A program made the translations under genes and the position numbers. This document shows, piece after piece, positions 20,947 through 50,514 of a stretch of 64,000 nucleotides of DNA. The notes beneath the pieces were generated by a model. The model was not told the DNA's origin. It ran no database searches and was given only the letters and a program-made list of their open reading frames with translations. Positions within the stretch are counted from its first letter, which is position 1. Every line of letters begins with the position of its first letter. The stretch comes from an uncultured Candidatus Saccharibacteria bacterium. GTDB lineage: Bacteria > Patescibacteriota > Saccharimonadia > Saccharimonadales > JAUPVS01. The DNA is taken from positions 23,001-87,000 of the forward strand of contig CAZVKH010000002.1 of the NCBI GenBank assembly GCA_964627095.1. The letters are read 5' to 3'.

Positions 20947-21084
20947 GCTTACTAGTATACGTGCTTATATGGGCTTGCAAAGCCTTAGCGATGCGCTTAT
21001 GCTAAAAGCAGGAAGTGAGAGACTTCCACTCAGACCTCGGCAGTAGCCGGGGTCTATTAGGCTAAATTGGAGTACAATAAAGTT

Positions 21085-24874: not shown

Positions 24875-24883
24875 AATGGTGGC

Positions 24884-24892
24884 ATTATACCA
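24884..24892 (-). promoter_or_regulatory. extended -10 (TGgTATAAT) for the GH operon
   Basis: Minus-strand tggtataat followed by gccaccatt and then ATG. Confidence 0.45.
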
Positions 24893-24927
24893 CTGTAAAA
24901 TGGTTACGTTTAGTTGTGTGCGTTGGC

Positions 24928-25115
24928 TGAACAAAATACGAATGGGTTTCCACGAGTGCGGTTAGGGTGCTCCACATATTTGACATGAATATTAAGAAAC
25001 ATAATTAAGTTAGTTAAGATTGTTATTAACTAAGTTAATTAAATCTTTTAATAATTAGCCTATTTTTGCGGAGGACCTTTTAGTTGTATGTAAATACCCA
25101 TTCGTATTTTGTTCA
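24928..25115. repeat. MITE-like foldback unit, copy A (20-bp perfect terminal inverted repeats)
   Basis: tgaacaaaatacgaatgggt (24928-24947) is the exact reverse complement of 25096-25115. Nt 24926-25078 are 153/153 identical to the reverse complement of 50308-50460. Confidence 0.85.
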
Positions 25116-25143
25116 CATACAAAGAATCAGAAGAAAACCAAGC

Positions 25144-25641
25144 CTAGCGGTAGTTGGTAAAGTTCACGGGGAAGTCAAAGTCGGCGGCGGTGATAAGTTG
25201 CATAACGGCCTGTAGGTCGTCTTTGCTGCCACTGACAACACGCACGACGTCGCCCTGGATCTGGGTCTTAACTTTGGGCAGCTCGTCGCGAATTAGCTTG
25301 GTAATCTTCTTGGTTTTTTCGGCGTCCAGGCCTTGCTGAAAGGGAACGTCTAAAGTGGTTTTTAGGTTAGCCACCACCGGTGTGCCAGAAACATCTAAAA
25401 TCTTTTGCGATTGGCCGCGGGTAGCCAGTTTTTTGCGCACAATGTCTAGGATAGCTTCGATCTGGTAGTCACTGTTGCCCACGACGCGCAAGCCGGTCTT
25501 CTCGGCGTTGAGCCAGTCCAGCTCGGCCGGCGTGCCTTTAAAGTCATAGCGGCTGCCGATTTCGCGCTGGGCTTGGTCAAAGACATTGTTCAGCTCGGCT
25601 TTGTCGTACTCGCTCGCGATATCAAAAGAAAATTGGGCCAT
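25144..25641 (-). CDS. yajQ: YajQ family nucleotide-binding protein (UPF0234)
   Basis: MAQFSFDIASEYDKAELNNVFDQAQREIGSRYDFKG, canonical YajQ N-terminus. Confidence 0.85.
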   Translation of the reverse strand: MAQFSFDIASEYDKAELNNVFDQAQREIGSRYDFKGTPAELDWLNAEKTGLRVVGNSDYQIEAILDIVRKKLATRGQSQKILDVSGTPVVANLKTTLDVPFQQGLDAEKTKKITKLIRDELPKVKTQIQGDVVRVVSGSKDDLQAVMQLITAADFDFPVNFTNYR

Positions 25642-25650
25642 AGCTACAGT

Positions 25651-26307
25651 TTAACCTAAAGTTGGCCGAAAATGGCTAGTGTATACGTATGTTTTTCGTC
25701 CGGGGCTACCGGTGCCGCCATGCATAGTTGGTGGTAAATTCATAAATACCACTGTATCGGTTTCGTTGGCGCGCACATGGCTGGCGCGGTGTGGAAGGTG
25801 ACGCATGTGATGTTGCGCCTCCAGATGGTGCCTGGCATGTGGGCTAAAAACATCTATCCGGGTGGTAGCAAGGCGGTAGTCAATTGAACCTTTTAGAGTA
25901 AGTGTTGCAGTCACCGGTCCGTACTTTGGAGTTACGCCTTGGACGGGGACTACTTGGTCAAGGTGATCATCTACCTCAACTGCTTGTGCCATACGGACAA
26001 ACGCAAGATCGTTTGGCGTGATCGTCTCGTCTAATGGTTTGCGCCGCCACCAATCCTGCATGGCTTGGTTGACTGGTTGTAAAAAGTCTAGTTCGGCGTC
26101 GGCAGCTGTTGCGGGTGAACCAGGCTGCAAAGCCAAATCGCGGCAATCTTCAACACTAACCGAACTGCGCAAAATCAGGCCAGCGTGCGGGCAGGGCGTC
26201 TGGGACATGTTCAAAAGTTCAAGGGTGGCCTCGTACATACGTTCAGGCGACGGCACACCGTCTACCATTGCATTCACATCTATTGGTGGTCTTTGCAAAA
26301 ATGCCAT
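25651..26307 (-). CDS. hypothetical protein (His-rich C-terminal third)
   Basis: 218-aa ORF, no family recognised. Confidence 0.45.
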   Translation of the reverse strand: MAFLQRPPIDVNAMVDGVPSPERMYEATLELLNMSQTPCPHAGLILRSSVSVEDCRDLALQPGSPATAADAELDFLQPVNQAMQDWWRRKPLDETITPNDLAFVRMAQAVEVDDHLDQVVPVQGVTPKYGPVTATLTLKGSIDYRLATTRIDVFSPHARHHLEAQHHMRHLPHRASHVRANETDTVVFMNLPPTMHGGTGSPGRKTYVYTSHFRPTLG

Positions 26308-26347
26308 GTAATAAGTTTAGCAAAGGTTCGACCATTCTTCCAGAGGT

Positions 26348-26356
26348 TGGTATAAT
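26348..26356 (+). promoter_or_regulatory. extended -10 (TGgTATAAT) 9 nt before pheS ATG
   Basis: ttggtataat-actgccaag-ATG. Confidence 0.45.
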
Positions 26357-26365
26357 ACTGCCAAG

Positions 26366-27400
26366 ATGAGCTACACCAATAAAAAGATTGCTGATACAGC
26401 GGTAGTGCTGACCAAGCGCCTCGAAACCCTTAAAGACAAAACCAGTATTCTGCGGGCCACCGAACTCAAGGCGCTATATGCTGAACTGCCACTGTTACCC
26501 AACGACCAAAAAGCGGCTTTTGGTAAGGAGATTAACCAGCTCAAGGCCGAGCTGCAAAAACTGGTTGATGCCGAGCAGCAAGAAGCCGAAAAACTGCCAC
26601 CAATTGACGTGACGGCACCATTTGATGTTAACGTCGGCAGCAACAAACCACGCTTGCTTAGCGCCGAGCAAGGTTCACGTCACCCATTGATGGTGGAATT
26701 AGACAAAGTTGTTGATATCTTTGGCCGGATGGGCTTTGTGCATATGGAGTCGCGTCAACTCGACGACGAGTACCACATGTTTGATAGTTTGAACTTCCCG
26801 AAAGGCCACCCGGCTCGTGATGACTACGACACCTTTATGACCACCGAGGGCTTAATTGCGCCGGCCCATGCGAGCGTTATGCAAAACCGTCTGCAAAAAA
26901 AGTACAAGCCAAATCTGGCAAAGGGCCAGCCAATTGCCGTGGTCTATACTGGCAGGACCTTCCGCAACGAAGATGTTGATGCCCGCCACGAGCATACCTT
27001 TTACCAGGTAGAAATTAGCTATATAGGTAAGAATGTCACTGCCGGTAACCTGGTCGCCACCTTCAAGACCTTCCTAGAAGAGTACTACCAGCAAGAGCTC
27101 GAAGTGCGTACTCAACCGTTTTACTTTCCATTTACTGAACCAAGTTTTGAAATGGCGCTGAGTTGTCCATTCTGTAAGAAGAAGGGTTGCCAAGTTTGTT
27201 CGCAATCCGGTTGGATCGAACTACTTGGTTGCGGCATGATCCACCCCAATGTTTTGAAGATGGGCGGCATCGACCCCAAAGAATATTCCGGCTTCGCTGG
27301 CGGCCTCGGTTTAGACAGACTAGTTATGATGAAATACGGCATCGAAGACGTCCGCCACAGTGAAAGCGGCAAACTAGAATTTTTGAGGCAGTTTAAATGA
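26366..27400 (+). CDS. pheS: phenylalanine--tRNA ligase alpha subunit
   Basis: Class II aaRS motifs (HPARD, FRNE, GFAGGLGLDRL). Confidence 0.95.
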   Translation: MSYTNKKIADTAVVLTKRLETLKDKTSILRATELKALYAELPLLPNDQKAAFGKEINQLKAELQKLVDAEQQEAEKLPPIDVTAPFDVNVGSNKPRLLSAEQGSRHPLMVELDKVVDIFGRMGFVHMESRQLDDEYHMFDSLNFPKGHPARDDYDTFMTTEGLIAPAHASVMQNRLQKKYKPNLAKGQPIAVVYTGRTFRNEDVDARHEHTFYQVEISYIGKNVTAGNLVATFKTFLEEYYQQELEVRTQPFYFPFTEPSFEMALSCPFCKKKGCQVCSQSGWIELLGCGMIHPNVLKMGGIDPKEYSGFAGGLGLDRLVMMKYGIEDVRHSESGKLEFLRQFK

Positions 27401-28011
27401 GAATTTTAGTATTTGGTGACAGCATTGTTTATGGCTCCTGGGACAGCCAAGGTGGCTGGGTTGAACGGCTCAAAAAAGTCGCTCATGCCAAAACCCTCCA
27501 AAGCCAAGGCGAGCAAAAAACCCAGGTACTGAATTTAGGCATTGGCGGCGACACCAGCACCAAGATTCTTAAACGACTCGATGCCGAAATAACCGCTCGG
27601 TTTTCGCCCAGCTGGCCATTTGCTTTTGTATTCAGTTTTGGCGCTAACGACGAACGCACAATCCAAGGCAAGCCAGAAACTAGCCTAGAAGAATTCAAAC
27701 AAAACGCCCAGGCCATAATTGATATTGCCAAAAAACACAGCCAAGCAATTTTGTTCGTGGCCGCACCGCCCCTAAGCCAGCCTGAGGTGATGTTTAAAGG
27801 CGTAGAATACTCCGACGAACGAATCGTTGAATACCAAGACGCCTTGCAGGAAATAGTTGAAGCGGCCGGCATTAAATTTGTCGATGTGCGCGAAGCGTTA
27901 GAAGCCGCCGAGGACAACATTTTTAGTTACGACGGACTGCACCCCAACGACCTGGGACACCAGATTATCGCCGAGGTAGTTGGCCCAGAGCTTGAGGAGC
28001 TAACAAAATGA
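27397..28011 (+). CDS. SGNH/GDSL hydrolase
   Basis: Blocks I FGDSIVYG, II GIGGDT, III GANDE, V DGLHPN. Confidence 0.8.
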   Translation: MRILVFGDSIVYGSWDSQGGWVERLKKVAHAKTLQSQGEQKTQVLNLGIGGDTSTKILKRLDAEITARFSPSWPFAFVFSFGANDERTIQGKPETSLEEFKQNAQAIIDIAKKHSQAILFVAAPPLSQPEVMFKGVEYSDERIVEYQDALQEIVEAAGIKFVDVREALEAAEDNIFSYDGLHPNDLGHQIIAEVVGPELEELTK

Positions 28012-28478
28012 GCATGGATACCGAACAAATCATTCGTGAATATATTGGCAAGTCGGTTCATATGTCGCTGGCGACGGTTAGCGGCGACCAGCCGTGGGTG
28101 TGCGAGGTGCATTGTGCCTACGATGATGATTTAAACCTGTACTTCCGTTCTAGTCCCAGGCGTCGACACAGCCAAGAGATTGCCGCTAACCCTAAGGTCG
28201 CTGGCAACATTGTGGGCCAACATGCGCTGGGCGAAGACCCGCATGGCATTTATTACGAAGGCACGGCCGAAATACTGACTACCAACGAACAACGCCAAGC
28301 GGCGCTGCCGTTCTTTATCAAATGCCTGGGCAAGAGTGACGGTATTTTGGAAGAAGCTCAGGACCCCAACAACACCCAGTTCTACAAGATTACGGTTAAA
28401 AACTGGTACGCCTTTGGCAAGTTCGGTGACGCCGAAAACTCCAAGCGACAGTTAGTCTGGAATGGAGGCGCAAAATGA
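28008..28478 (+). CDS. pyridoxamine 5'-phosphate oxidase-like (FMN-binding split barrel) protein
   Basis: MSLATVSGDQPWVCEVH...LYFRSSPRRRHSQEI pattern typical of the PNPOx-like family. Confidence 0.6.
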   Translation: MSMDTEQIIREYIGKSVHMSLATVSGDQPWVCEVHCAYDDDLNLYFRSSPRRRHSQEIAANPKVAGNIVGQHALGEDPHGIYYEGTAEILTTNEQRQAALPFFIKCLGKSDGILEEAQDPNNTQFYKITVKNWYAFGKFGDAENSKRQLVWNGGAK

Positions 28479-29146
28479 TTGTCATAACTGGTGCCAGTGA
28501 CGGCTTAGGTCACGAGATTGCAAAACTTTATAAGGCCAGCGGCAAGACGGTGGTGAATATTTCGCGTGGTGAATGTAGCGTGGCCGACCATAATTTGGTG
28601 TACGACCTTTCCAAGGGCGATCAAATAGCGGCGGCGGTGCAAGCCGTGCTGGCGTTGGGCGAACCGCTCGAGGTACTCATTAACTGCGTTGGAATTTGGA
28701 GTGAAGAACCAATCGGCCAGATGACCGAACAGGTCACCCAACAAGTCTTGGATGTTAATGCCAAGGCACCGATGATGGTCATTGCCGGCCTAATGGAGCG
28801 CATTCGCCAGGACGGCACAGACATATTAAATGTCGTTTCAACGGCCGGACTCAAGGGCAACAAGAACCATGCTGCCTACGTGGCATCTAAGTGGGCCGAA
28901 CGTGGCTTTACCGACTCGGTTCGTGAAGAGTTGCACGACACGCCATCGCGCGTAATCGGCTTTTACCCGGGCGGTATGAAGACTAAGTTATTCGCCAAAG
29001 ACCTGGGCAAAGACATTACCGACAACGGTACCTACTGGATGGACCCCGCCGCCGTAGCAGTGTGCGTTAAGCAGATACTAGACCTACCTAAGGGAATTGA
29101 AGTCAGCGAGATTACCTTGAACCGGAAAAAGGGTTATAAGGGATGA
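28475..29146 (+). CDS. short-chain dehydrogenase/reductase (SDR)
   Basis: ITGASDGLG cofactor motif and YVASKWA catalytic YxxxK. Confidence 0.8.
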   Translation: MIVITGASDGLGHEIAKLYKASGKTVVNISRGECSVADHNLVYDLSKGDQIAAAVQAVLALGEPLEVLINCVGIWSEEPIGQMTEQVTQQVLDVNAKAPMMVIAGLMERIRQDGTDILNVVSTAGLKGNKNHAAYVASKWAERGFTDSVREELHDTPSRVIGFYPGGMKTKLFAKDLGKDITDNGTYWMDPAAVAVCVKQILDLPKGIEVSEITLNRKKGYKG

Positions 29147-37650: not shown

Positions 37651-38640
37651 ATGGCCGAAGACCAACCATTCCAGCAGCAACCAGAACAACCACCTGTTAA
37701 CCCGGAAGAAGTAGCGCAGGCAGCTGCATTAGAAAATGGGGTACCTGACCCGACTGTTATCGAAGTCCAAACAGATCAATCTGGCGATGCCGCAGATGAG
37801 AATGAAGGGCGCTGGGATCCAGGTAAAGCCGCAACGCTGGCGGCCGCGCTTAAAGAAGAAGGCAGCTTTGACCGTGATCTAGAAGAGCATGAAGACTTTA
37901 AGAAGAAGGCATCGGCAGACGATTATCTCGATTCCTATCACCCGGTTAAGGGTAAGAAAAATGAAGTTGATTATGTTAAATCTGAAATTCAAGCACTCGA
38001 GAACCTTGAGCACAAGGATGAGTTTACTGAAGAGCGTATTGTGCGTCAGAGACAACGTTTAGACAGGAAAGAAAGCGAACTTGCGGCCACAAGGGAAGCA
38101 GTCGGTAAACATACCGAAGAGTCTCTTAGAAAAAGTAGCGAACGGGTTGCTAAAGTTGCAGATCAGGTGCTATCACCATTTGAAGAGTTGTATGACCTCA
38201 ACCCCGAAGCTTTTGCAAACATGCCAACCTCGGAGTTTATGGCCGTTGCCAAAGAGCTAAAAGAAATTGATCGTGCCACTCGGGAAAAGAGCGAATATTT
38301 AGCCGAGGTAGAAGGCTACGTTACCGAAGTCGATGAATTAATCGCTGAAGGGAAAGAATTAACGACATCCGCCGTTTACGAAGTATTTAATCGACTTGCC
38401 GATATTGCCTGGGGTAAGCCAGACGGCCCAGATTCTGGGTACAATGAGTTTTGTGAGGCAGAAGAAAAACAATATTTCGATCCAATTTTTGAAGGATCAT
38501 TCGACAAGACACCGCGAGAAAAAATGAATGGCGTCAAAGCGATGTACCAAAACTATGCTTCTCGAATCAAAGAAGGGCGCGACGCCGCTCGGGCCCAGCG
38601 CGAGCAACTCATAGCCAAGTACACGCCTAAGTCTGAGTAA
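37651..38640 (+). CDS. acidic coiled-coil protein, unknown function
   Basis: 329 aa, Glu/Asp/Lys-rich; no motif. Confidence 0.5.
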   Translation: MAEDQPFQQQPEQPPVNPEEVAQAAALENGVPDPTVIEVQTDQSGDAADENEGRWDPGKAATLAAALKEEGSFDRDLEEHEDFKKKASADDYLDSYHPVKGKKNEVDYVKSEIQALENLEHKDEFTEERIVRQRQRLDRKESELAATREAVGKHTEESLRKSSERVAKVADQVLSPFEELYDLNPEAFANMPTSEFMAVAKELKEIDRATREKSEYLAEVEGYVTEVDELIAEGKELTTSAVYEVFNRLADIAWGKPDGPDSGYNEFCEAEEKQYFDPIFEGSFDKTPREKMNGVKAMYQNYASRIKEGRDAARAQREQLIAKYTPKSE

Positions 38641-38657
38641 TAAGAACCCAAAGTCTT

Positions 38658-38666
38658 TGCTATAGT
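38658..38666 (+). promoter_or_regulatory. extended -10 (TGcTATAGT) 6 nt before ATG 38673
   Basis: tttgctatagttaagtcATG; no SD, implying a leaderless transcript. Confidence 0.45.
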
Positions 38667-38672
38667 TAAGTC

Positions 38673-40343: not shown

Positions 40344-40449
40344 AACGCAATATTATTCATGTTACGATACAACAAAACAACCCAGATTGCAAAGGTGGTA
40401 ATTTGCTCATGCTTGCAAATACTATAGAAAAGGCTAGAGTAGAAAAATA

Positions 40450-41199
40450 ATGATTGATTTTGGAGAACACCAGCCCGAAGCCGAACGCATGCGCGTCTTG
40501 ACCGACGATATGCTGGTGCAGCAACCACTATCAGACGACAACCGCTTGCTCGACACTTTGCAACAGGCTCATTACCTTGAACCCGATACCTGTGTTGGCT
40601 ATGCGCCAGCTGCCCTGTACTTTACTCGAGAAGGGGGAGAAGATGACCGTGTCGCCGAGCTGTTTGTTGGACGGCCTTTAGGCGAAGCTGCCCTGGTTCC
40701 CAACGGGGATGTCGTAGCCAACTACAGCTCAACGCACTTCAAACTACTTGAACTGTACGATAAACTTCCGTTTGGCACTACTAGTACCGAAACGGGCACT
40801 GTTACTGATTGCCAGGATGGTAGGCGTTTATTTGTGCCTCGTAATGAACAAAGCGTAGAGTCACAAATTTTGCATGGCCGATTTGCGGGTGCAACTGCTT
40901 TGCGCACCGAGTTTGACCGCCTTGGTATTGATGACATTGGTTTCAGCCGGCCATGGGTCACGGATAAGTATCAATGGAGTAAATTGCTAAGTTTTATAGG
41001 CGCACTGCGTGAAGCCGCAAAATGGGTTAGCTATACCTTAGAACCACCCTATGATCACGCAGCCCAAGAACGCTACCCAAGAACCCTAACATTCGAAGAG
41101 GCTACCGTCTGCCTGGATGGCGCACTTTCGGCTATTGCCGATGGATTTCCGGCCCACGACATTGATTTCGTTCATGACATCCTGGGCTATGCGCATTAG
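40450..41199 (+). CDS. hypothetical protein (249 aa)
   Basis: Long ORF; TAGAGT -10-like hexamer 9 nt upstream of the ATG. Confidence 0.5.
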   Translation: MIDFGEHQPEAERMRVLTDDMLVQQPLSDDNRLLDTLQQAHYLEPDTCVGYAPAALYFTREGGEDDRVAELFVGRPLGEAALVPNGDVVANYSSTHFKLLELYDKLPFGTTSTETGTVTDCQDGRRLFVPRNEQSVESQILHGRFAGATALRTEFDRLGIDDIGFSRPWVTDKYQWSKLLSFIGALREAAKWVSYTLEPPYDHAAQERYPRTLTFEEATVCLDGALSAIADGFPAHDIDFVHDILGYAH

Positions 41200-41254
41200 C
41201 ATTCCAAGAATATGACAACCAGTCAGGCACCACTTTTACAGATACCCCACAATA

Positions 41255-41263
41255 TGGTAGGAT
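41255..41263 (+). promoter_or_regulatory. extended -10 (TGgTAGGAT) 6 nt before ATG 41270
   Basis: tggtaggat-agtttt-ATG. Confidence 0.4.
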
Positions 41264-41269
41264 AGTTTT

Positions 41270-41818
41270 ATGCAACACTTGGTAGAGGCCAGTGCTTTCC
41301 AAAAACCGACTCAACGCTTTCCTACACTTGAGGAATTTGCTGAATTTGGTGCTGCCCACCAGGGTGACAGCTGGAGTGTGCGCTTTCCGATGGAAGGCGA
41401 GCTACAAGCCGACATCATCGGTGGTGAATGGCAAAATGACGATGACCCTGCTTTTAGAGACGGTTCAATTTGTGTCGGCCCAGACCAATTTGTAGAATTA
41501 AGTAACGGTCGTCGTACCGTAACGTTCCCTCGTAGCGAAGAAGGCTTAATCGTGTCGACCAACTATTATTCCCTCAACATTACCTACAGGGACCCAACGA
41601 TTAACCAGCCTAACCGCCAGGTTTTTGACCGCAGCCTTGTCTGGGTAGCCGTCCCGCGCTACCGTGTTGGGCTAAGAAACCCCTTTATGAGGTTTGGTAT
41701 TAACCGGAATCACCACGCTGACGCCGAAACCTTGTCTGCACAAATGCTGACTGCCCGCGATAAGGCAACTAACTACTTGCTCGGCGCACTGCTAGACGAC
41801 CCGTTCACTCAAGACTAA
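41270..41818 (+). CDS. hypothetical protein (182 aa)
   Basis: Long ORF, no family recognised. Confidence 0.5.
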   Translation: MQHLVEASAFQKPTQRFPTLEEFAEFGAAHQGDSWSVRFPMEGELQADIIGGEWQNDDDPAFRDGSICVGPDQFVELSNGRRTVTFPRSEEGLIVSTNYYSLNITYRDPTINQPNRQVFDRSLVWVAVPRYRVGLRNPFMRFGINRNHHADAETLSAQMLTARDKATNYLLGALLDDPFTQD

Positions 41819-41821
41819 ACT

Positions 41822-42424
41822 ATGACCAAATATGTTCTTAATTCAGGTGGTGTTCGTAACAATCCGGCTAAGGCTAGGGAGTTCATGGCCGAGGTGGTGA
41901 AGGGTTTAGGCGTTGAGCCTAAGATGCTGGTGTGCTTATTTGCCCAACCGCGCGAAGACTGGGAAGTTAAGTTTAGCCAATACACCAACGAGCTGAACGA
42001 ACGTTTACCGGAGGGTGTAAAACTGACATTAGAACTGGCTATGCCCGACAGCTTTGCCGATCAGGTTGCCCGCAACGATATTGTTTACATACACGGCGGC
42101 GATGACGAGTTAGCTACCTACCGCTTTAGTAAGTTCAACGATCTGCCTGGCATTTTTGCTGGCAAAGTTATTGCCACCAGCTCGGCTGGCTCCGATGTGT
42201 TGGTAAAACATTACTGGACCTGTGACTGGCGTCGCAACATGGACGGCCTGGGCATTCTTCCTATTAAATTCCTGCCTCATTACAAATCTGCCTATGGCAA
42301 CGACGACCCTTATCGCGGTCCGATCGACTGGGACAAAGCCTACCAAGACCTAGCCGCCTACGGCGACACCTCACTACCGATTCACGCCCTCGAAGAAGGC
42401 GACTTTATTGTCATCGAACAGTAG
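41822..42424 (+). CDS. peptidase S51 (dipeptidase E)-like / class I glutamine amidotransferase-like protein
   Basis: IVYIHGGD and nucleophile-elbow-like ATSSAGSDV, about 200 aa. Confidence 0.5.
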   Translation: MTKYVLNSGGVRNNPAKAREFMAEVVKGLGVEPKMLVCLFAQPREDWEVKFSQYTNELNERLPEGVKLTLELAMPDSFADQVARNDIVYIHGGDDELATYRFSKFNDLPGIFAGKVIATSSAGSDVLVKHYWTCDWRRNMDGLGILPIKFLPHYKSAYGNDDPYRGPIDWDKAYQDLAAYGDTSLPIHALEEGDFIVIEQ

Positions 42425-42427
42425 TGA

Positions 42428-43030
42428 CTATTCGGCTGATTCGCTGACGGTGTAGACGATGGCGGTTTTGCCGTCTTTGGTGTTGTAGTAGGTGTTGACG
42501 TTAAGCGTGCCTTTTTTGGCTATGATCAAGCCGCCGTCGCTGGTGTCGCTGTTCATGCTGGTGGTCCAGCCGTCGGTGGAGAAGCTCTTAACCTGGCTTT
42601 CGCTGACTTTTGTGACACTGTCGCTGGTGGTCATGGTGACTGTCCAGGCTGTTTTGCCGTCTGTAGTGATTTTACCGCTACCTTCGATGTCACCGTCATA
42701 AACCGGTATGCCGGTAGGAAAGTCTTTTGGTAAAGTCTTGGTCTCGCCGGCGGTGTATTCATTACCATCTTTGTCTTTAACGGTCACGCTCTTGCTGTTG
42801 GAGTCGACTTTTACACCGGTTTCGTCTGATATCTTGTTGCCCAGAAACACTGCGCCGACTGTAAAGAAGATGGCTGGCAAAATTACAAAGAAGAACACTA
42901 CCACAGCTACGATGATGATAACGGTCTTGTTGTTATTCTTTTTGGCCACTGGAGCTGCGGCCGGGGCCTCCGGTTTAGTTGTTTCGGCTGCTGGTGCTGG
43001 TTTTGGTGCTTCGGCTGGTTTGTCGGCCAT
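42428..43030 (-). CDS. membrane-anchored extracytoplasmic protein
   Basis: Ala/Pro-rich N-terminus, single TM, beta-rich Thr/Lys/Asp ectodomain. Confidence 0.5.
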   Translation of the reverse strand: MADKPAEAPKPAPAAETTKPEAPAAAPVAKKNNNKTVIIIVAVVVFFFVILPAIFFTVGAVFLGNKISDETGVKVDSNSKSVTVKDKDGNEYTAGETKTLPKDFPTGIPVYDGDIEGSGKITTDGKTAWTVTMTTSDSVTKVSESQVKSFSTDGWTTSMNSDTSDGGLIIAKKGTLNVNTYYNTKDGKTAIVYTVSESAE

Positions 43031-43107
43031 TGGGATACTCCTTATAGTAGTTGTTAACCTTATAATACTCCCCAGGCAAGCAATATTCTAGATAATCCCC
43101 AGCACCA

Positions 43108-43136
43108 TTGACAAAAAAGCATAACCTTGCTAGAAT
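43108..43136 (+). promoter_or_regulatory. near-consensus promoter TTGACA-N17-TAGAAT (with TGc extension)
   Basis: ttgaca 43108-43113, 17-nt spacer, tagaat 43131-43136; ATG 43147 follows 10 nt later. Confidence 0.6.
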
Positions 43137-43146
43137 AGTTAACATT

Positions 43147-43800
43147 ATGCAACGATTCAACGCCGAAGACCTTGATCCTGGTTATAAAGAATTTGTGAAA
43201 GAACAACGCAAAATTCGTCGCAAGGCGAACCTTCGCGACGGGGCTTTTGTAGCCGTTGCTCTAGTTGGTGCCGGCTTAGCTACTGGTTACGTCAGTTCTT
43301 GTGAGTCAAGCGAATCTGGCAGTCAGCCAAGTGTTACCGAAGTCACCCCTGCTCCAGAAGTTGTAATTAGTTACGACAACCCAACCGAAAGTGCTCAATA
43401 TTGGGCACGCGGCGGTAGTGACGAAAAAGTTACTGTTAGCGACATTAACCTCGCTAAAACCTATGCTGAAATGGTGGAAGATCCTAATCAGGCTAGTCTG
43501 GTAAATGACCTTGTGAGTCGTGAGGCCGCTTTGGCCGCCTCCTATGCCGCCGGTGGTAGTGGCAATGGCTCAATTACTGTCAATGACTTTAAAGTAGCCG
43601 AATATCTAGCCGACGTTTCAGCCGATTACGGTGAACATAGCGACTCAGCCTATGAAGCGATTGCCACTAACGCCATAATGGTTGGTAACTATTGGCAGCA
43701 GGGTGGAGTCGATGGTGTTGCTGAAAGCAGGGACTACCGAGTTGCCAACTATTACTACGACATTGCTGCACAAGCCAACCAAGACGCCCAAGCCAACTAA
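43147..43800 (+). CDS. membrane-anchored (lipoprotein-like?) hypothetical protein
   Basis: Start moved to ATG 43147 because the TTG at 43108 is the -35 hexamer. TM segment ends in ...VSSC. Confidence 0.5.
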   Translation: MQRFNAEDLDPGYKEFVKEQRKIRRKANLRDGAFVAVALVGAGLATGYVSSCESSESGSQPSVTEVTPAPEVVISYDNPTESAQYWARGGSDEKVTVSDINLAKTYAEMVEDPNQASLVNDLVSREAALAASYAAGGSGNGSITVNDFKVAEYLADVSADYGEHSDSAYEAIATNAIMVGNYWQQGGVDGVAESRDYRVANYYYDIAAQANQDAQAN

Positions 43801-43822
43801 ACGCTTGTGTTATAATATTAGC

Positions 43823-44000
43823 GTTAACAACTAATTATCGCGAGCACGGCGAGGGATCGAGCCCTAAGACCCGTCAGCAACCAGGTTCAGTTTTATACTG
43901 AACAAAAGGTGCTAATTCTCGCCCCATGAAAGGGGGAAGATATGACCACATCTATGTCATTTATATAACCAACCGGTTTTTCTGGTTGGTTCTTTTATTT
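43823..44000 (+). ncRNA. candidate structured RNA (sRNA or cis-acting leader), about 175 nt
   Basis: Extended -10 TGtTATAAT at 43808-43816. Hairpins at 43846-43874, 43885-43903 (7 bp perfect), 43922-43935 and 43942-43960, ending in an intrinsic terminator. Confidence 0.4.
43967..44000 (+). terminator. Rho-independent terminator
   Basis: aaccaaccgg-ttttt-ctggttggtt (10-bp stem including one G-U) followed by cttttattt. Confidence 0.7.
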
Positions 44001-44036
44001 ACCTCTATTAATTTGAAACATTAGGAGACATATATA

Positions 44037-44543
44037 ATGACCGACAAAGAACTATCACCTCAAAAAATTGCCGAGATACTAGGCTCCGAACCACCAATTT
44101 ACGTTGGTGAGGTTAGTTTTATCGACCTGGCTAGTGGCGGCACAAGTGGAAAGGTCGAGGCTCACAAACGGGCCCGTGAAGTGGCGCACGACAGCCCCGA
44201 TAGTGCCATTGGCGGAGCGATCGCCAAGCTAGCTGGGCTGATTGATGTGCCGCGCGGGCCGCAAGCCGATCTAACACCAACTCAAAAAGATGCCGTCGCC
44301 GGCAGCATTGTTTCGTTACTATTTTGGCACGAACGTTACCAAGACGGTGGTGCCGATGAAGCGACAGTTATCAGAGGCCTGTTTGACGAATATTTTGTCT
44401 ACCAATCTGAAGTTGCCGAAACGCCCGCTGGTCATGTACTGCGCGTTCTGGGCGACGACTTTGCTATCGAGACCGGCTTTGACCTCGATCAGGCCTGGGA
44501 AATATACCTGAACTCACTCGAGGCTAATAATCGCGGCCGCTAA
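44037..44543 (+). CDS. hypothetical protein (168 aa)
   Basis: SD aggag 8 nt upstream; no family recognised. Confidence 0.5.
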   Translation: MTDKELSPQKIAEILGSEPPIYVGEVSFIDLASGGTSGKVEAHKRAREVAHDSPDSAIGGAIAKLAGLIDVPRGPQADLTPTQKDAVAGSIVSLLFWHERYQDGGADEATVIRGLFDEYFVYQSEVAETPAGHVLRVLGDDFAIETGFDLDQAWEIYLNSLEANNRGR

Positions 44544-44596
44544 GTTCTTAACATAAGCGGCTTGCTACTCAGCCACCACAAGTCTAGAATAGAACT

Positions 44597-45373
44597 ATGA
44601 AGCTGAAAAAGCTCGACCAAACCGGGTCGCACTTAATAGCCGTTGTATTGGTGATTGTGGCAATTGCCGTAGTTGGGTTTGCCGGCTATCGTGTCTTGGG
44701 CCAGAAAAAAGACAACTCTAGCGCCAGCACCAATAGCCAGCAACCATCCAAAACGGCCACAGAAGACGACCTGGTTCTGCAAAACCTCGGCATCGATACA
44801 CTTAGTAACGTTGAAGTCACCACCCAAGCCACGCGCGAATATCAAAGCCGGGGCTTGAAGGGTTTCTATATATTTGGCGATAAACTAGACGCCACGCGCA
44901 AGAATCCTAACTTCGAGTACGCCTCGCTCAAAACTGGCACCAAAGCCGTTGCCGCCATCGACGGTACAGTAACATTTATTAAGTTACAGAACGACAGCAA
45001 CGACTACGAAGTAATGGTGCAGCCCAAAGACGGCTCGGCTTGGACGATTGGCTACGATCACCTGGTAAAACTGACCGTCAAGCAAGGCGACACCGTTAAG
45101 GCTGGTGACCCGCTGGGCGAACCCAACGTCCAAAATAACGGCCTGCTAAGATTCGAAGTTCAGATCAACAAAGACGCCAACGGCCAAACAACCCATTACT
45201 GCCCATCCAACCTGTTGGCGGCAAGCGTCAAAGATCAGCTATTAACCGAACTCAAAACCATGCAAAACCAGTGGAACACCACTACCGGCTTCCAGCTTTA
45301 TGATGTGTCGCAGCAAAACCCAGTTGGTTGCCTAAAAACCACCATGACTCCAGCCGAAGCCGAAGGCCGCTAA
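44597..45373 (+). CDS. membrane-anchored degenerate M23/LytM-like protein (paralog of 302-1129)
   Basis: GTKAVAAIDGTV...IGYDHLVKLTVKQGDTVKAGDPLGEP...LRFEVQI. Same architecture and N-terminal KL(D/N)Q(T/A)G anchor as the first ORF. Confidence 0.45.
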   Translation: MKLKKLDQTGSHLIAVVLVIVAIAVVGFAGYRVLGQKKDNSSASTNSQQPSKTATEDDLVLQNLGIDTLSNVEVTTQATREYQSRGLKGFYIFGDKLDATRKNPNFEYASLKTGTKAVAAIDGTVTFIKLQNDSNDYEVMVQPKDGSAWTIGYDHLVKLTVKQGDTVKAGDPLGEPNVQNNGLLRFEVQINKDANGQTTHYCPSNLLAASVKDQLLTELKTMQNQWNTTTGFQLYDVSQQNPVGCLKTTMTPAEAEGR

Positions 45374-45813
45374 GCTGCCGGTGACGGGTTCGCAAAACCC
45401 TCTGGCACGAACTGGCGGAGCATTTTTAGTGCCTCTGGTGCTGAACTGATAACACCGGTAACCCCGGCTTGAAAGCTGGCCGCGTCAAGAATGACATCAT
45501 GAGGGTTGGCTGACAGTTCTAGTTCTTGCTTGTCTACCACGCCGTAATACCAGTTTGGGTTGGCTAGCTTTACGTCATCACTAACCGATGCCAGTATGAC
45601 TGGCGCTAGCTTGCCCAGGTAGAACTCACCGTTCCAATAATAGGCTGTGCGCTGAGCTTCGGGAATCGGTATAACTTCTGCCACCCATGGCTTTGGAAAG
45701 CCCCAACCAAGCAGAGCCTTTCTTTGTATGTATTGTAAATCCACAAAGTTGCTCAAAGTAACGCCTGGTGGTTTTTCTGCTTTACTGGCTTTTAGTTTCT
45801 CAAAATAGCTCAT
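45370..45813 (-). CDS. hypothetical protein
   Basis: Start set to ATG (MSYFEKLK) to avoid overlapping the NUDIX gene. Confidence 0.45.
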   Translation of the reverse strand: MSYFEKLKASKAEKPPGVTLSNFVDLQYIQRKALLGWGFPKPWVAEVIPIPEAQRTAYYWNGEFYLGKLAPVILASVSDDVKLANPNWYYGVVDKQELELSANPHDVILDAASFQAGVTGVISSAPEALKMLRQFVPEGFANPSPAA

Positions 45814-45860
45814 CGTAATATATAATCTACAACTTTCCCCTAAAAACGCAAGCAGCGCTT

Positions 45861-46379
45861 TTAAAGATAATCGGTGGCTGGCACCTGTTCCCAGTTGGGC
45901 AAGCAAACTTCAAGGCCAAACAGGCCAATGTCGCGCACAAAAGTATCTAGCTTAGCTATTTCGGCGGCTGTGAGCAGCTTAATTTCGGCTGATTCGTTGT
46001 CGCTAATTGCTCCCGCTGGTGCTTCGTTGGCTACGAATATATACCCTGCATCAGTGTGGAAGTGCTGTTCATGGCCATACTGGTGGGTGTTGTAGCTGGC
46101 CGGTAGCGGGTGAAGTGTGTTGTTGGTTGACAACTTGAGTCGTTCTGCTGGCTGTAACACTTTAAGCTGGGCAATCTGGTAGCCGGTTTCTTCTTCTATT
46201 TCGTGGCAAATTGCCTGCCAAGGATTTTCGTTGAGCTCGATGTGGCCGCCAAACTGCATCCAACGACCGAGTTTTTTGTGCTTGTGCAGCATCAGCTTAG
46301 GCTCAGCAAAGTCGGTTCTAATAATGTAAGCGCTCACTGTGTGGTCGTATTGGCCTGGTTTAGTATGTAGATGCGGCAT
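45861..46379 (-). CDS. NUDIX hydrolase
   Basis: NUDIX box GGHIELNENPWQAICHEIEEETGY. Confidence 0.8.
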   Translation of the reverse strand: MPHLHTKPGQYDHTVSAYIIRTDFAEPKLMLHKHKKLGRWMQFGGHIELNENPWQAICHEIEEETGYQIAQLKVLQPAERLKLSTNNTLHPLPASYNTHQYGHEQHFHTDAGYIFVANEAPAGAISDNESAEIKLLTAAEIAKLDTFVRDIGLFGLEVCLPNWEQVPATDYL

Positions 46380-46437
46380 ATTGACAGTATACAGCCGACC
46401 ACGAGAATGATAAGCTTAAATAGAATTGAGGAGGATT

Positions 46438-47151
46438 ATGGCCGACGTTATTACTGCAAAGAATATTGTTAAAACCTATGGCAAAGGCGAGAGCGCTTTT
46501 TCGGCCCTTAAAGGAGTTGATTTAACAATCGGTGAAGGCGAAGTCGTAGCTGTTATTGGCAAGAGCGGCTCCGGCAAGTCTACTTTAATGCACCTACTAG
46601 CCCTACTCGACACGCCCACTAGCGGCAGTATCAGCGTTAATGGCGCCAATGCGTCGCAGATGAACCGCAAAAAAGTCGACCGGCTGCGTAACGACGAATT
46701 TGGTTTTGTTTTTCAGCAATTCTTTTTAAACGGTGACGAATCGGTTCTTAGTAACGTCATTTTGCCACTCAAGATTGCTGGCATTACACCGCGCGAACGC
46801 AAGCGCCGTGGCCTCGAAGTTCTAAAAGCAGTCGAGCTCGAAGACAAGGCCAATAGTAAAGCGGCTAATTTAAGTGGTGGTCAAAAACAGCGTGTCTGTA
46901 TTGCTCGAGCGCTAATTAATGATCCAAAAGTTATTTTTGCCGATGAACCAACCGGTAACCTCGACAGTCAAACTGGTAGCAAAATCGAGGCGCTACTATT
47001 TTCTTTAAATAAGAAGAAGGGTATCACGCTGATTTTTGTCACCCACGACCCCGACCTAGCCAAACGTTGCCAACGCGAGGTTCATATTAAAGACGGCAAA
47101 ATTGTTAGCGTCACCGTCAATAAAGCTGCTGGCAAGCGAGGTAGCAAATAA
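46438..47151 (+). CDS. ABC transporter ATP-binding protein (MacB/LolD/FtsE-like)
   Basis: Walker A GKSGSGKST, signature LSGGQKQR, Walker B IFADEPTGNLD. The TTG at 46426 lies immediately upstream of the SD (gaggagg), so the ATG at 46438 is used. Confidence 0.9.
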   Translation: MADVITAKNIVKTYGKGESAFSALKGVDLTIGEGEVVAVIGKSGSGKSTLMHLLALLDTPTSGSISVNGANASQMNRKKVDRLRNDEFGFVFQQFFLNGDESVLSNVILPLKIAGITPRERKRRGLEVLKAVELEDKANSKAANLSGGQKQRVCIARALINDPKVIFADEPTGNLDSQTGSKIEALLFSLNKKKGITLIFVTHDPDLAKRCQREVHIKDGKIVSVTVNKAAGKRGSK

Positions 47152-48440
47152 TGAAATACCGCGACATCATCCGTACCGCCAACAGTAACCTGCGCAAAAG
47201 TAAGCTACGCACCTTTCTTACTATAGGTGCTGTTTTTATGGGCGCCTTAACTTTGATGCTAACCACCGGTGTCGGGCAGGGGCTTAAAACCTATGTTGAT
47301 GAACAAGTCTCGGCCGTTGGCGCCAAAGACGCTTTGATAATTAGTGTCAAGACCGAAGGCGGTGGCCCGGTTAGTAACGACAATCCTAAAGAATACGACC
47401 CCAGCAAAAAACAGGCCTCGGCCGACTTTACTAATCCGCCGATGTTAAGTTCCGAAGATGTCGCCAAAATTCAGAACACTAAAGGTATCAAGAGTGTGCA
47501 ACTCTTCTACCCGGTGGCCGCCGAGTACATAACGCGCCCCGGGCAGGGTAAGTTCCTGATTACCGCTACCCAAGCCGTCAACGGTTTGAACCAGCCTCTA
47601 AGTGCCGGCCAGCTGGTAGATAACAGCAGCCCAACCAACCAAATCACGCTTCCTCCCGGTTTTGTTAGTAAGTTAGGTTTTTCCAATGACCAAGACGCCG
47701 TCAATAAAAAAGTTGCGATGGCGTTTAAAGACAGCCAAGGCCAAATTTTTGAAATCCCAGTTACCGTGGTTGGCGTCCAAGAAAAGACGCTTATCCAGGG
47801 TAATGCCGCCAACGTTAACGACGCCACCATGTTAGCCGCCTTTAACAAGGCAACGGCTGGTGTGCCCGACTTCCAGCGTAATCAGTACGCCTATGTGGTC
47901 GGCAAATTCGACGTTAACATGAGCGAAACCGACCTTAAGGCACTCAAAGATCGTTTAGCCGAACAAGGCTACAGCGCCTCGACTTTAGAAGACCAGCTGG
48001 GCATTATCACCAGTGTCATTAATGGAATAACCACATTCTTAAATGTTTTCGCCGGTATTGCTCTGGCCGCCGCCAGCTTTGGCATCGTTAATACCTTGTT
48101 TATGTCGGTTCAAGAACGCACCCGCGAGATTGGCCTAATGAAAGCCCTCGGCATGGGTCGCCGCAAAATATTTGCGCTGTTTAGTTTAGAGGCCATTCTG
48201 ATTGGTTTCTGGGGCGCCCTAATTGCGCTCGGCGCCGCCAATATTATTGGCCGGATTGGCAGCAAGGTTGCCGCCAATACTTTGTTCAAAGACTTCGAAG
48301 GTTTGGAACTGTTTTCTTTCCCAACCCGCGCGATGATTCCTATCATTATCCTGATTATCGTTATCGCCTTTTTGGCCGGTGCCTTGCCAGCCCGCCGCGC
48401 CAGCCGCAAAGATCCAATCGAAGCTCTGCGCTATGAGTAA
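47151..48440 (+). CDS. ABC transporter permease, FtsX/MacB-type
   Basis: N-terminal TM, large periplasmic domain, C-terminal FtsX-like 3-TM bundle (ERTREIGLMKALG). Confidence 0.85.
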   Translation: MKYRDIIRTANSNLRKSKLRTFLTIGAVFMGALTLMLTTGVGQGLKTYVDEQVSAVGAKDALIISVKTEGGGPVSNDNPKEYDPSKKQASADFTNPPMLSSEDVAKIQNTKGIKSVQLFYPVAAEYITRPGQGKFLITATQAVNGLNQPLSAGQLVDNSSPTNQITLPPGFVSKLGFSNDQDAVNKKVAMAFKDSQGQIFEIPVTVVGVQEKTLIQGNAANVNDATMLAAFNKATAGVPDFQRNQYAYVVGKFDVNMSETDLKALKDRLAEQGYSASTLEDQLGIITSVINGITTFLNVFAGIALAAASFGIVNTLFMSVQERTREIGLMKALGMGRRKIFALFSLEAILIGFWGALIALGAANIIGRIGSKVAANTLFKDFEGLELFSFPTRAMIPIIILIIVIAFLAGALPARRASRKDPIEALRYE

Positions 48441-50238
48441 ACGCCGGTTCGGCCTATTTGCTTTACTGGCCATTCTGGTTAGTTTGCTGCTGCCCTTAAG
48501 TGTGCCGCGCGCTCAGGCCAGCACCCAAGACTTTGAGGTTGAATCATTCACAGCCGACTACTACTTAGAACGGCGCGCCGATGGCGTGCCCACCATGAAG
48601 GTTAAGGAAATGATTGTTGTCGTCTTCCCGGAATTCGACCAGAACCACGGCATCTTGCGTGCCATACCCAAAACCTATAAGGACCAGCCCCTCGACCTAA
48701 AAGTTACTGGCGTCACCAGCCAGTGGGGCAACGCCTGGCCCTACACCACCAGTACCAGTAACGGTAACCTGGTGTTAAAAATCGGCAGCGCCAGCCGTTA
48801 CGTGCGCTCCATTCAGGTGTATAACATAAGTTACGAGCTCAAGAACCCAATTAGTTTTTTTGACGATCACGATGAACTATATTGGAACGTCAATGGTACC
48901 GACTGGCAGCAGCCCTTTGGTGACGTAACGGCCCGGATCCATGTACCGGCTAGCCTTGGCAGCTCCTTAAAAGACGAGCAACTTTGCTACACCGGGCTGC
49001 GTGGCAGTACCGCCCAAAACTGCACCATAACGCGAACGCCCGAAGCCGGTGGCACTCTGGTGACTGTTAATGCCAACAACCTCGGCGGCGGCCAGAATAT
49101 GTCGTTTGTACTGGGCTTTAATCAAGGTACATTTAAGCCCGACCTAGCCGCCCAGCGTCTAGCCGTTCTGCGTAACGTCATCTTAATTATGCTAGTGGCT
49201 GGTCCAATTATTTTGAGTGCCTTCTACATATACATTCGTTGGAATCGAATCGGTCGTGACGCTAAAGGTCGGGGCACGATAGTTCCACAGTATGTGCCAC
49301 CCAAGGGCTTGAACAGCCTAACCAGCGAGGTTATTTTGCAGGAGCGACTGAGTCAAAAGGCGGTATCGGCCATGATGATTGAGCTAGCCGTGCACAAGGT
49401 ACTAATTATCCGTGAAATTACCATCAAAAAACTTGGCCGCGACAAAACCGACTACGAGCTAGAACTGCGCAAGCCATTAAGTAGCCTGGCGGCTAGTGAG
49501 CAGGCGGCCGCAAAACTGTTCTTTACAGCCGGCACGGTTGGCGAAAAAGTTGCCTTGGCCGATCTTAAAACCAAGCTGTCTAGCAAATACACCAGTTTGG
49601 CTAGATCTATTCCGGCCGACCTAACAAACGCTGGCTACTTTACTAATAACCCGGTTAAAGTTACCGGTCGTTACTATGGTGCTGGCAGTGGTTTACTGGG
49701 TGCCGGCTTCTTTATAAGTTTGCTACTAACCCAAGTCTCGATATTTTTCCTAACGCTTGGAATTGGCCTGGCCGTCGGTGGCTTCTTGTTTTTGATTTTT
49801 GCCAAGGCCATGTCGGCGCGCACACCAAAAGGCGTTGAAGCGTTCGAATACCTAGAAGGTCTAAAAATGTACATGAAACTAGCCGAAGCCGACCGCTTGC
49901 GTTACTTGCAAAGCCCCGAGGGCGTCCGCCAGTGGGGTGATCCGTCCAAGCCAGTCAACCAGCTCAAGCTTTTCGAAAAGCTGCTGCCCTATGCCATGAT
50001 CTTTGGCATCGAAAAAGGCTGGGCCAAACAGTTCGAAGACCTCTATACCGAAGCGCCCAGTTGGTACCAGGGCAGCTCGCGACCGTTTACCACTGGCTAC
50101 TTGATTGGTTCTTTGGGTTCATTCAACTCGGCCAGCACGGCCGCCTTTACAGCGCCTTCCAGCTCTGGTTCAAGCGGCTTCGGTGGCGGTGGCTTCTCTG
50201 GTGGCGGCGGTGGCGGTGGCGGCGGTGGTGGCTGGTAG
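48433..50238 (+). CDS. DUF2207-like membrane protein with C-terminal poly-Gly tail
   Basis: Signal peptide, large ectodomain, TM cluster, tail SSSGSSGFGGGGFSGGGGGGGGGGGW typical of DUF2207. Confidence 0.7.
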   Translation: MSKRRFGLFALLAILVSLLLPLSVPRAQASTQDFEVESFTADYYLERRADGVPTMKVKEMIVVVFPEFDQNHGILRAIPKTYKDQPLDLKVTGVTSQWGNAWPYTTSTSNGNLVLKIGSASRYVRSIQVYNISYELKNPISFFDDHDELYWNVNGTDWQQPFGDVTARIHVPASLGSSLKDEQLCYTGLRGSTAQNCTITRTPEAGGTLVTVNANNLGGGQNMSFVLGFNQGTFKPDLAAQRLAVLRNVILIMLVAGPIILSAFYIYIRWNRIGRDAKGRGTIVPQYVPPKGLNSLTSEVILQERLSQKAVSAMMIELAVHKVLIIREITIKKLGRDKTDYELELRKPLSSLAASEQAAAKLFFTAGTVGEKVALADLKTKLSSKYTSLARSIPADLTNAGYFTNNPVKVTGRYYGAGSGLLGAGFFISLLLTQVSIFFLTLGIGLAVGGFLFLIFAKAMSARTPKGVEAFEYLEGLKMYMKLAEADRLRYLQSPEGVRQWGDPSKPVNQLKLFEKLLPYAMIFGIEKGWAKQFEDLYTEAPSWYQGSSRPFTTGYLIGSLGSFNSASTAAFTAPSSSGSSGFGGGGFSGGGGGGGGGGGW

Positions 50239-50265
50239 GAGATGACTTTTCGTTTCGCACATTTC

Positions 50266-50458
50266 TGAACACTTTGTGAACATGGGGTGTCCCACACAGT
50301 CGTAAATAGGTCCTCCGCAAAAATAGGCTAATTATTAAAAGATTTAATTAACTTAGTTAATAACAATCTTAACTAACTTAATTATGTTTCTTAATATTCA
50401 TGTCAAATATGTGGAGCACCCTAACCGCACTCGTGGAAACCCATTCGTATTTTGTTCA
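50266..50458. repeat. MITE-like foldback unit, copy B (inverted relative to copy A; outer arm decayed)
   Basis: 50308-50460 is the exact reverse complement of 24926-25078. TIR acccattcgtattttgttca at 50439-50458; the opposite arm at 50266-50288 retains only tgaaca...tggggt. Confidence 0.8.
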
Positions 50459-50505
50459 GCGTTTAATCCACTATCTGCCTACGGCACTCGCCAACATTAA
50501 CACCG

Positions 50506-50514
50506 TGCTACAAT
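50506..50514 (+). promoter_or_regulatory. extended -10 (TGcTACAAT) upstream of ATG 50529
   Basis: tgctacaat, 14 nt, ATG; no SD. Confidence 0.4.

Follow-up and report, generated by a model that had tools for sequence, protein, structure and literature searches.

The locus and its inverted repeat pair

The stretch of DNA analysed here (the window: 64 kb of a contig from an uncultured Candidatus Saccharibacteria bacterium, CAZVKH010000002.1, positions 23,001 to 87,000) contains two intergenic copies, A and B, of a non-coding palindromic element in opposite orientations. To the left of copy A are two MGH1-like glycoside hydrolase (GH) genes, both on the minus strand; yajQ lies on the other side of this copy. 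Copy B separates a DUF2207 gene from the gene of a 183-aa membrane protein, the first of an ATP-binding cassette (ABC) exporter operon. Nucleotides 24926-25078 of the plus strand are the exact reverse complement of nucleotides 50308-50460 (153 of 153 bases), as claimed in an initial annotation of this DNA, and the genes flanking the two copies run in the directions that it had given. Gapless extension of the match yields 156 nt at 99% identity; that identity stops abruptly at either end, another claim of the annotation, was likewise borne out. The window holds no second repeat of comparable size, so a 153-nt match is far beyond what chance would produce.

The 153 nt had been taken for the full unit, which they are not. 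The outer limit of the identity coincides with the end of the element, while the inner limit (25078/50308) falls within it. The true unit is about 190 nt long and, in copy A, is bounded by a 20-nt terminal inverted repeat (TIR) without mismatches. Copy B agrees with A through the 5' arm, across the AT-rich apex and into the 3' arm, but its last ~43 nt are very different: the two copies show no differences in the first 153 nt and then differ in 25 of 43 alignment columns. No open reading frame (ORF) of 80 or more amino acids starts inside either copy, and the core of the element is an AT-rich palindrome devoid of a transposase gene. The size reported for the intergenic gap around copy B (290 bp) is correct. 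The 210 bp reported for copy A has to be revised to about 266 bp when the ATG at 24877 is taken as the GH start codon, as in the gene call of a relative.

A dispersed family in close relatives

The terminal 20-mer (TGAACAAAATACGAATGGGT) was searched as an exact match in 185,579 species, each represented by one genome. This returned five stretches, of which four are on three contigs of a single metagenome-assembled genome (MAG), JAUPVS01, and the fifth is a chance match. JAUPVS01 is labelled 'Patescibacteria group bacterium', and its flanking genes are 80-88% identical to those of the window (about 85% at the nucleotide level). It holds at least four copies of the element, one at the site between the GH gene and yajQ and three elsewhere (see Table 1). 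Ahead of the M23 peptidase gene, the window carries a SAM-riboswitch cassette in place of the element.

Scans with degenerate TIRs, which covered metagenome and viral collections, added a 27-nt short form, TGAACAAAATACGAATGGGTTTTGTTCG, found at two sites on WBZX01 contigs from a third relative. Otherwise these scans gave chance matches or an unrelated conserved 20-mer in gut-metagenome contigs. One of the two short forms (L013) occupies the same M23 site as the long copy of JAUPVS01 (L007). The short form may be a recurrent deletion product or a unit that propagates separately. A six-copy nhmmer profile run against about 200 kb of sequence from relatives, including the more distant contigs L045-L048 and L057, found no further copies.

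The two ends of the element behave differently. The 22-nt 5' end, CTGAACAAAATACGAATGGGTT, is the same in every long copy, and both short forms retain its 20-nt core, TGAACAAAATACGAATGGGT, unaltered, whereas the 3' end varies between copies. The family is dispersed, and the sites that it occupies differ from one relative to the next. The initial annotation had called for a search for further copies; their presence at other sites in relatives counts against a static ancient duplication.

History of the two sites

The space between the DUF2207 and 183-aa genes is 39 nt in JAUPVS01 and in those Logan contigs of the 183-aa gene that reach it (three span it fully, the others ending within or beside it). 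In the outgroup contig L046, where the 183-aa homologue is 54% identical, the same space is 68 nt. Because site B is empty both in JAUPVS01 and in this outgroup, copy B was gained in the lineage of the window; it is a recent, lineage-specific acquisition. Site A, by contrast, is old, being common to the ~85%-identical relative. A related but longer inverted-repeat structure is found between yajQ and a GH gene in the outgroup contig L057 (4811-5335; YajQ 88% identical). It consists of 21-nt inverted repeats, GTACCCACGCACGTTATGGGC and GCCCATAACGTGCGTGGGCAC, whose inner flanks, AATTATTAAAAGAkTTAAT and TTAACTAACTTAAT, match the apex of the window element. The repeats enclose a promoter-like sequence, TGCTATAAT, and an orphan 132-aa ORF. 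This ORF was considered as a transposase and set aside, having no Pfam match and no HUH motif by eye; its only homologue among 5.8 billion proteins is itself.

Copy A is 84.4% identical to the JAUPVS01 copy at the orthologous site (L010) and 84.4% identical to a second JAUPVS01 copy, L006. L006 and L010 are 92.2% identical to each other, and A and B are 100% identical over 153 nt. These values fit duplication in each lineage after the split. The differences are not evenly spread. L006 and L010 do not differ at all in the central 104 alignment columns, while their 15 differences cluster in the mid-stem and the ends. Such patchiness, seen here as well as between A and B, rules out uniform mutation; its cause must be a donor copy not seen here, a tract of gene conversion or complex mutations of the palindrome. 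A simple quasi-palindrome template switch was considered for the 3' arm of B and is unsupported, this arm not being a perfect complement of the 5' arm.

An A-like copy served as source or conversion partner for the first 153 nt of B, so recently that these have accumulated no substitutions. The suggestion in the initial annotation that perfect identity reflects recent copying or conversion is thus upheld, site B being empty in the relative and outgroup and site A being common to the relative. Homology between the flanks of A and those of B is not convincing.

Placement relative to neighbouring genes

At all seven sites, a gene begins 49-107 nt away from the invariant end of the element. At each of the three informative sites (A, B and M23), the invariant end points toward the gene start and the variable end toward the upstream stop codon. 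Each window copy has the same orientation relative to the outward-facing operon that it precedes, as had been pointed out earlier. The copies are inverted because each faces the 5' end of one of two diverging operons (GH and ABC exporter), and the bracketing of 25 kb between them is a by-product of this orientation rule. Each faced gene has its own extended -10-like motif. The motif ahead of the GH gene, TGGTATAAT, is likely to be the promoter of the GH operon, judging from its sequence; the one ahead of the 183-aa gene, TGCTACAAT, is kept at the empty site. The element is therefore not the core promoter. The positions of the element copies, their parts and their neighbours are collected in Table 1.

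Table 1. Element copies in the window and in relatives, with the adjacent genes and putative promoter motifs
Feature	Position	Strand	Remarks
Copy A, complete non-coding palindromic element of ~190 nt	24927..25116	+	nhmmer match 24926-25116; folds; orthologous copy in relative (L010/L049)
153-nt core of A	24926..25078	+	same as core of B, by sequence comparison
5' TIR of A, TGAACAAAATACGAATGGGT	24928..24947	+	unchanged in 6/6 long and 2/2 short copies found
3' TIR of A	25096..25115	-	perfect reverse complement of the 5' TIR (20/20)
AT-rich apex inverted repeat of A	25002..25041	.	16-nt arms 25002-25017 and 25026-25041, 15/16
Copy B, 196 nt	50265..50460	-	opposite strand; nhmmer match 50460-50265; hairpin; site empty in relatives
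153-nt core of B	50308..50460	-	sequence comparison
5' TIR of B	50439..50458	-	sequence comparison
Diverged 3' arm of B	50265..50307	-	terminal repeat degenerate; pairs with 5' arm in another register
MGH1-like glycoside hydrolase	23426..24877	-	start 49 nt from 5' end of A; transcribed away
Extended -10-like motif TGGTATAAT	24884..24892	-	between A and GH start, 37 nt from element; conserved in L049
YajQ (DUF520)	25144..25641	-	stop codon 28 nt from 3' end of A
DUF2207 membrane protein	48433..50238	+	stop codon 26 nt from 3' end of B
Extended -10-like motif TGCTACAAT	50505..50513	+	between B and 183-aa gene; also at relatives' empty site; putative function
183-aa membrane protein, first gene of ABC-exporter operon	50529..51080	+	start 68 nt from 5' end of B
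Long copy, JAUPVS01	L010/L049		orthologous GH|yajQ site
Long copy, JAUPVS01	L006		between DUF1761 gene and low-complexity protein gene; window element-free there, near 15.1 kb
Copy at contig end, JAUPVS01	L007/L037		upstream of M23 peptidase gene (homologue of window 44597)
5' half only, JAUPVS01	L009		upstream of dprA
Short form, 27 nt	L011 691-717; L013 377-403		8-bp stem GAACAAAA/TTTTGTTC, 10-nt loop; two identical copies at unrelated sites, one metagenome

Folding and regulatory signals

Copy A folds into one long hairpin, with an energy of -69.2 kcal/mol under RNA parameters (z -8.7 relative to shuffled sequences) and -33.6 under DNA parameters (z -6.4). Copy B also forms a hairpin (-62.2 kcal/mol, z -6.5 relative to shuffles), in which the tail pairs in a shifted register. 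All four full copies fold into a single long hairpin on either strand, at -53 to -72 kcal/mol. Pairing in the stem is maintained between copies, with one clean compensatory change from U-A to C-G. Since the two strands fold about equally well, the symmetry belongs to the DNA and not to one transcript, and a strand-specific RNA structure was rejected on this ground. The base of the hairpin in the window copies is made of an A-tract, a G+C-rich stem and a U-rich tract. Consensus scans detect one weak inward promoter-like site per copy, within shuffle expectation, and no terminators. The motif TAnnTTTG in the element was at one point read as a Bacteroidota-type promoter; this was dropped, the relatives being labelled Patescibacteria.

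A probable MITE-like repeat

The two 153-nt arms are probably parts of two copies of a nearly palindromic repeat of about 190 nt, resembling MITEs (miniature inverted-repeat transposable elements), that belongs to a family confined to close relatives. The characteristics of MITEs listed by Delihas 2011 (PMC3184786), which include a size generally below 200 bp, can be compared with those of the present element. Copies A and B are 190 and 196 nt long, and L006 and L010 are 189-192 nt. The TIRs match at 20 of 20 positions in A and at 17 of 20 in L006 and L010, and are degenerate in B. The core lacks a transposase. A stem-loop is formed by all four full copies, well beyond shuffle expectation in both A and B (z -8.7 and -6.5). 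Finally, occupancy of the sites points to mobility: site B is filled in the window only, while the sites at ~15.1 kb and 44.5 kb are filled in the relative only.

Several observations weigh against this reading. No target-site duplication abuts copy A, copy B, L006 or L010, and comparisons of filled with empty sites do not show clean insertions. The surplus DNA of filled sites exceeds the element, amounting to 26 + 196 + 44 nt at site B and to 57 + 189 + 35 nt at the L006 site, so that replacement of the whole spacer by recombination fits as well as transposition. The scanned window ORFs include neither a transposase nor a parent insertion sequence (IS) bearing these TIRs, and the species genomes searched for the exact 20-mer yielded none either, only copies devoid of ORFs. 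Copy B reproduces A only in part and calls for the unseen donor, conversion tract or complex mutation mentioned above. Copies are few: the 64 kb examined here contain 2, and JAUPVS01 at least 4. The orientation bias, which comes from three informative sites (p about 0.125), is only suggestive, and consensus promoter and terminator scans of the elements do not exceed shuffle expectation. As neither a target-site duplication nor a parent transposase came to light, we call the element MITE-like; strict membership of the MITEs is unproven.

The element would be mobilised in trans, now or recently, by an enzyme encoded elsewhere, or else copied by recombination. It would land, or persist, just upstream of promoters with its invariant end toward the gene start; with the GH and ABC-exporter operons diverging, two such copies would end up inverted. 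In RNA reading through from yajQ or DUF2207, the element is predicted to form a long hairpin, the base of which resembles a bidirectional terminator (A-tract, stem, U-tract), and this hairpin may insulate the downstream operon. Such a role as a read-through barrier is plausible from the structure, despite the negative consensus scans. The pair would be a potential substrate for RecA-type inversion rather than a dedicated switch.

Alternative explanations

It could be argued that the element is a cis-acting module selected by the host: the 22-nt end CTGAACAAAATACGAATGGGTT, the apex palindrome or both would be bound by a protein, or the hairpin would serve as a terminator or insulator, the module being spread by recombination and its identity kept by selection and conversion. 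The 5' end is indeed invariant across three lineages that differ by 12-20% elsewhere, while the 3' end varies. Every copy sits 49-107 nt upstream of a start codon, and both window copies lie 26-28 nt past the stop codon of a co-directional upstream gene. The failure to find either a target-site duplication or a transposase points the same way, and identity within a genome combined with divergence between genomes fits concerted evolution. However, the distance to the -10-like hexamer varies (37, 49 and about 62 nt), so the element does not act as a fixed part of a promoter. The genes next to the copies have unrelated functions (GH, ABC exporter, M23 peptidase, DUF1761, dprA, pup/rarA), relatives without the element at site B keep the same -10, and no consensus terminator or promoter rises above chance. 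On balance, we regard a host-selected module as unlikely.

A more speculative proposal, which we consider rather improbable, is that of a self-propagating palindromic module, not a conventional transposon, specific to streamlined Patescibacteria genomes. Its single invariant 22-nt end would be bound by a host or unknown protein, and it would be copied into promoter-proximal spacers without target duplication and homogenised by conversion or hairpin-templated repair. Were this so, the module would also supply inverted substrates for rearranging the variable island.

The very stable fold, the conserved pairing and the sigma-70-like hexamers inside the element might instead mean that the two copies encode a small structured RNA or act as a shared 5'-leader. 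When the window was scanned with Rfam 15, neither element reached the gathering score of any family, the sole match being a SAM riboswitch elsewhere, and a permissive scan of copy A returned generic long hairpins alone, far below threshold. The equal folding of the two strands in all copies indicates a palindrome at the DNA level, the promoter-like matches are within shuffle expectation, and truncated and 27-nt forms persist. An RNA gene is thus very doubtful.

Does the 25-kb segment invert?

The initial annotation had presented the DNA between the copies as a special bracketed segment, and the pair might be the site of a reversible 25-kb inversion, driven by a site-specific recombinase or by frequent RecA action, with both isomers in the population. 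Homologous recombination across 153 identical inverted bases is plausible by analogy, this length being sufficient for it. The segment contains a variable island of restriction-modification (RM) and orphan genes, and a contig branch at 25094 calls for an explanation. Inversions mediated by a MITE, the Correia element (CREE), have been documented in Neisseria gonorrhoeae (PMC3454330).

Nevertheless, the gene order speaks against an inversion site. The junction GH|element|yajQ|pheS is common to the window and JAUPVS01, and the junction DUF2207|183-aa|ABC is common to the window, JAUPVS01 and the outgroup L046. The order pheS-pheT-DUF2207-183aa-ABC is likewise shared with L046, where pheS, pheT, DUF2207 and the exporter all lie on one strand, as in the window. 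A comparison of synteny with relatives had been suggested in the initial annotation; it gives the same gene order at both junctions, and the assembled relatives show the orientation of the window only. JAUPVS01, moreover, has no copy at site B. The GC skew stays positive on both sides of 24.9 kb and does not switch at 50.4 kb. Pfam scans of the ORFs from 14 to 55 kb, which take in the segment and its near flanks, detected no recombinase, invertase, integrase or transposase, several orphan ORFs being matchless. The segment carries the essential pheS and pheT genes in ancestral order and is not a mobile island. On these counts the special status of the segment is not supported; inversion of the 25 kb, possible in principle, is unsupported, and we consider a switching site highly improbable.

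The branch at 25094 deserves comment. Two Logan contigs from two samples (L001 and L002) end at this position, 16 nt before the shared core. This implies that those samples contain another sequence, alike over 25094-25123 (the 3' terminal repeat and 8 nt of flank on the yajQ side) and different beyond; a strain variant of site A is the probable explanation. Nor is the branch evidence of inversion: the point of divergence of an inverted isomer would fall within the 153-nt core, and this one is 16 nt outside.

An RmuC-family gene (21067-22152; PF02646, E 2.7e-53) is located 2.8 kb from copy A. In E. coli, inversion at short inverted repeats has been linked to RmuC. Because the gene is syntenic in the relatives, its closeness to copy A is probably a coincidence.

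Assembly evidence

Three independent samples have Logan assemblies that match the window at 100% identity. Their contigs stop 30 nt (k-1, with k = 31) inside the repeat, L058 at 24955 and L003-L005 at 50431. The repeat is not an assembly artefact. A repeat, or an orientation of the segment, produced by mis-joined contigs in a metagenome bin is the least credible explanation of all: the source does look like a MAG-type contig and short-read assemblies break at the repeat, but the independent Logan assemblies are 100% identical to the window at three of the four junctions between flank and repeat, and the independently assembled relative has the same gene order at both junctions. The repeat accounts for the short-read assembly breaks at 24.9 and 50.4 kb in this lineage and marks a possible spot of mis-join or real inversion.

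Other features of the window and its relatives

The SAM riboswitch (RF00162, 51.3 bits) lies at 43832-43945 on the plus strand, ahead of an orphan 168-aa ORF (44037-44543) that has no Pfam match. The cassette to which it belongs (window 43784-44547) is absent from L013, where the 27-nt short form is found; JAUPVS01 has the long form at the same boundary. The stretch from 32000 to 38000 is low in GC (0.436-0.448, as against about 0.49). It carries a DUF3800 gene (33528-34175) and a C5 cytosine methyltransferase gene (34438-35541), and a block of ORFs without Pfam matches comes after them, reaching about 41.8 kb. In L049, a different, N6/N4 methyltransferase is encoded at the same position after pheT. 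A 31-nt direct repeat, AAACCAGCCCCCAAAAAATCAGTTTCTAAAG, 97% identical, occurs at 56200-56230 and 56754-56784, with a spacing of 554 nt.

The DUF2207 protein ends (50190-50238) in a poly-glycine tail and a W, the tail being specified by GGY codon repeats, and several Logan contigs of relatives (starts of L038-L040 and L044) break in the GGY repeat and not at an element. On the minus strand of L011, nucleotides 398-601 encode a 67-aa, Pup-like (prokaryotic ubiquitin-like) ORF ending in ...FIQRGGQ; it diverges from rarA, with the short-form hairpin in between. Past the truncated element of L009, about 450 nt (700-1150) contain no convincing ORF and are hairpin-rich, with a terminator-like GGCC...TTTT end; no Rfam family reaches its gathering score in this region.

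Comparison with known systems

A close likeness is to the Correia elements (CREE/NEMIS) of Neisseria, MITEs of about 100-160 nt. Like the present element, they are non-coding, have terminal inverted repeats, are intergenic and often just upstream of genes, and form a long RNA hairpin. They can influence neighbouring transcription, as may be envisaged here. Correia elements have 26-bp terminal repeats and a TA target duplication. In contrast, our element ends in CTGAACA...TGTTCA(G/C) without a flanking TA duplication. Its host is of the Patescibacteria type and not Neisseria, and 2-4 copies are known instead of more than 100 per genome; no sequence relationship is claimed. Correia elements also have a site for integration host factor (IHF; PMC3184786).

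The ERIC/IRU sequences of Enterobacteriaceae, imperfect palindromes of about 127 nt, are placed among MITEs in Delihas 2011 (PMC3184786). As with our element, they are located in intergenic transcribed regions, have no known transposase and vary in presence between related genomes (PMC3184786 in part). They differ from it in sequence and host, and in that the present element has a perfect 20-nt terminal repeat and one extremely conserved end.

REP/REPIN sequences, mobilised by RAYT (an IS200/IS605-like Y1 transposase), are intergenic hairpins without target duplications, as here, and REPIN doublets and REP singlets bring to mind the 190-nt long and 27-nt short forms. Unlike REPs, which are 20-40 nt long, G+C-rich and highly abundant, this family has an A+T-rich terminal repeat and 2-4 copies, and the terminal 20-mer is not itself palindromic. 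No Y1_Tnp match was obtained among the scanned ORFs from 14 to 55 kb. Some resemblance also exists to dispersed hairpin repeats that look like terminators and are sited after genes. The present element is much longer than these, its interior is rich in AT, its stem is not followed by a clean U-tract, and no terminator came out of the scan.

In a typical inverton the repeats are short (tens of bases), the segment is small and an invertase is encoded next to it. The likeness is limited to inverted repeats flanking a segment: here the repeats come from a dispersed family, the segment holds 25 kb of housekeeping genes, and Pfam scans found no recombinase. Integron attC sites, with their core sites RYYYAAC and GTTRRRY, cassette arrays and IntI integrase, were considered and rejected. 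The ends of the element, GCTGAAC and GTTCAGC, are each one base off this consensus, the copies are solitary and 25 kb apart, and the Pfam scans revealed no integrase.

A full-text literature search found no such elements described for Patescibacteria. Genomes of this type are small and generally repeat-poor, and the present case documents a small, evolving family of hairpin repeats in one of them. The conserved 22-nt end, the 27-nt derivative and the patchy identity within genomes provide handles on the factor responsible for copying. The element is a new low-copy family of a well-known kind, that of MITE-like palindromic intergenic repeats. Similar elements, with their side effects, are familiar from Neisseria and the enterics, and the family is no surprise in kind.

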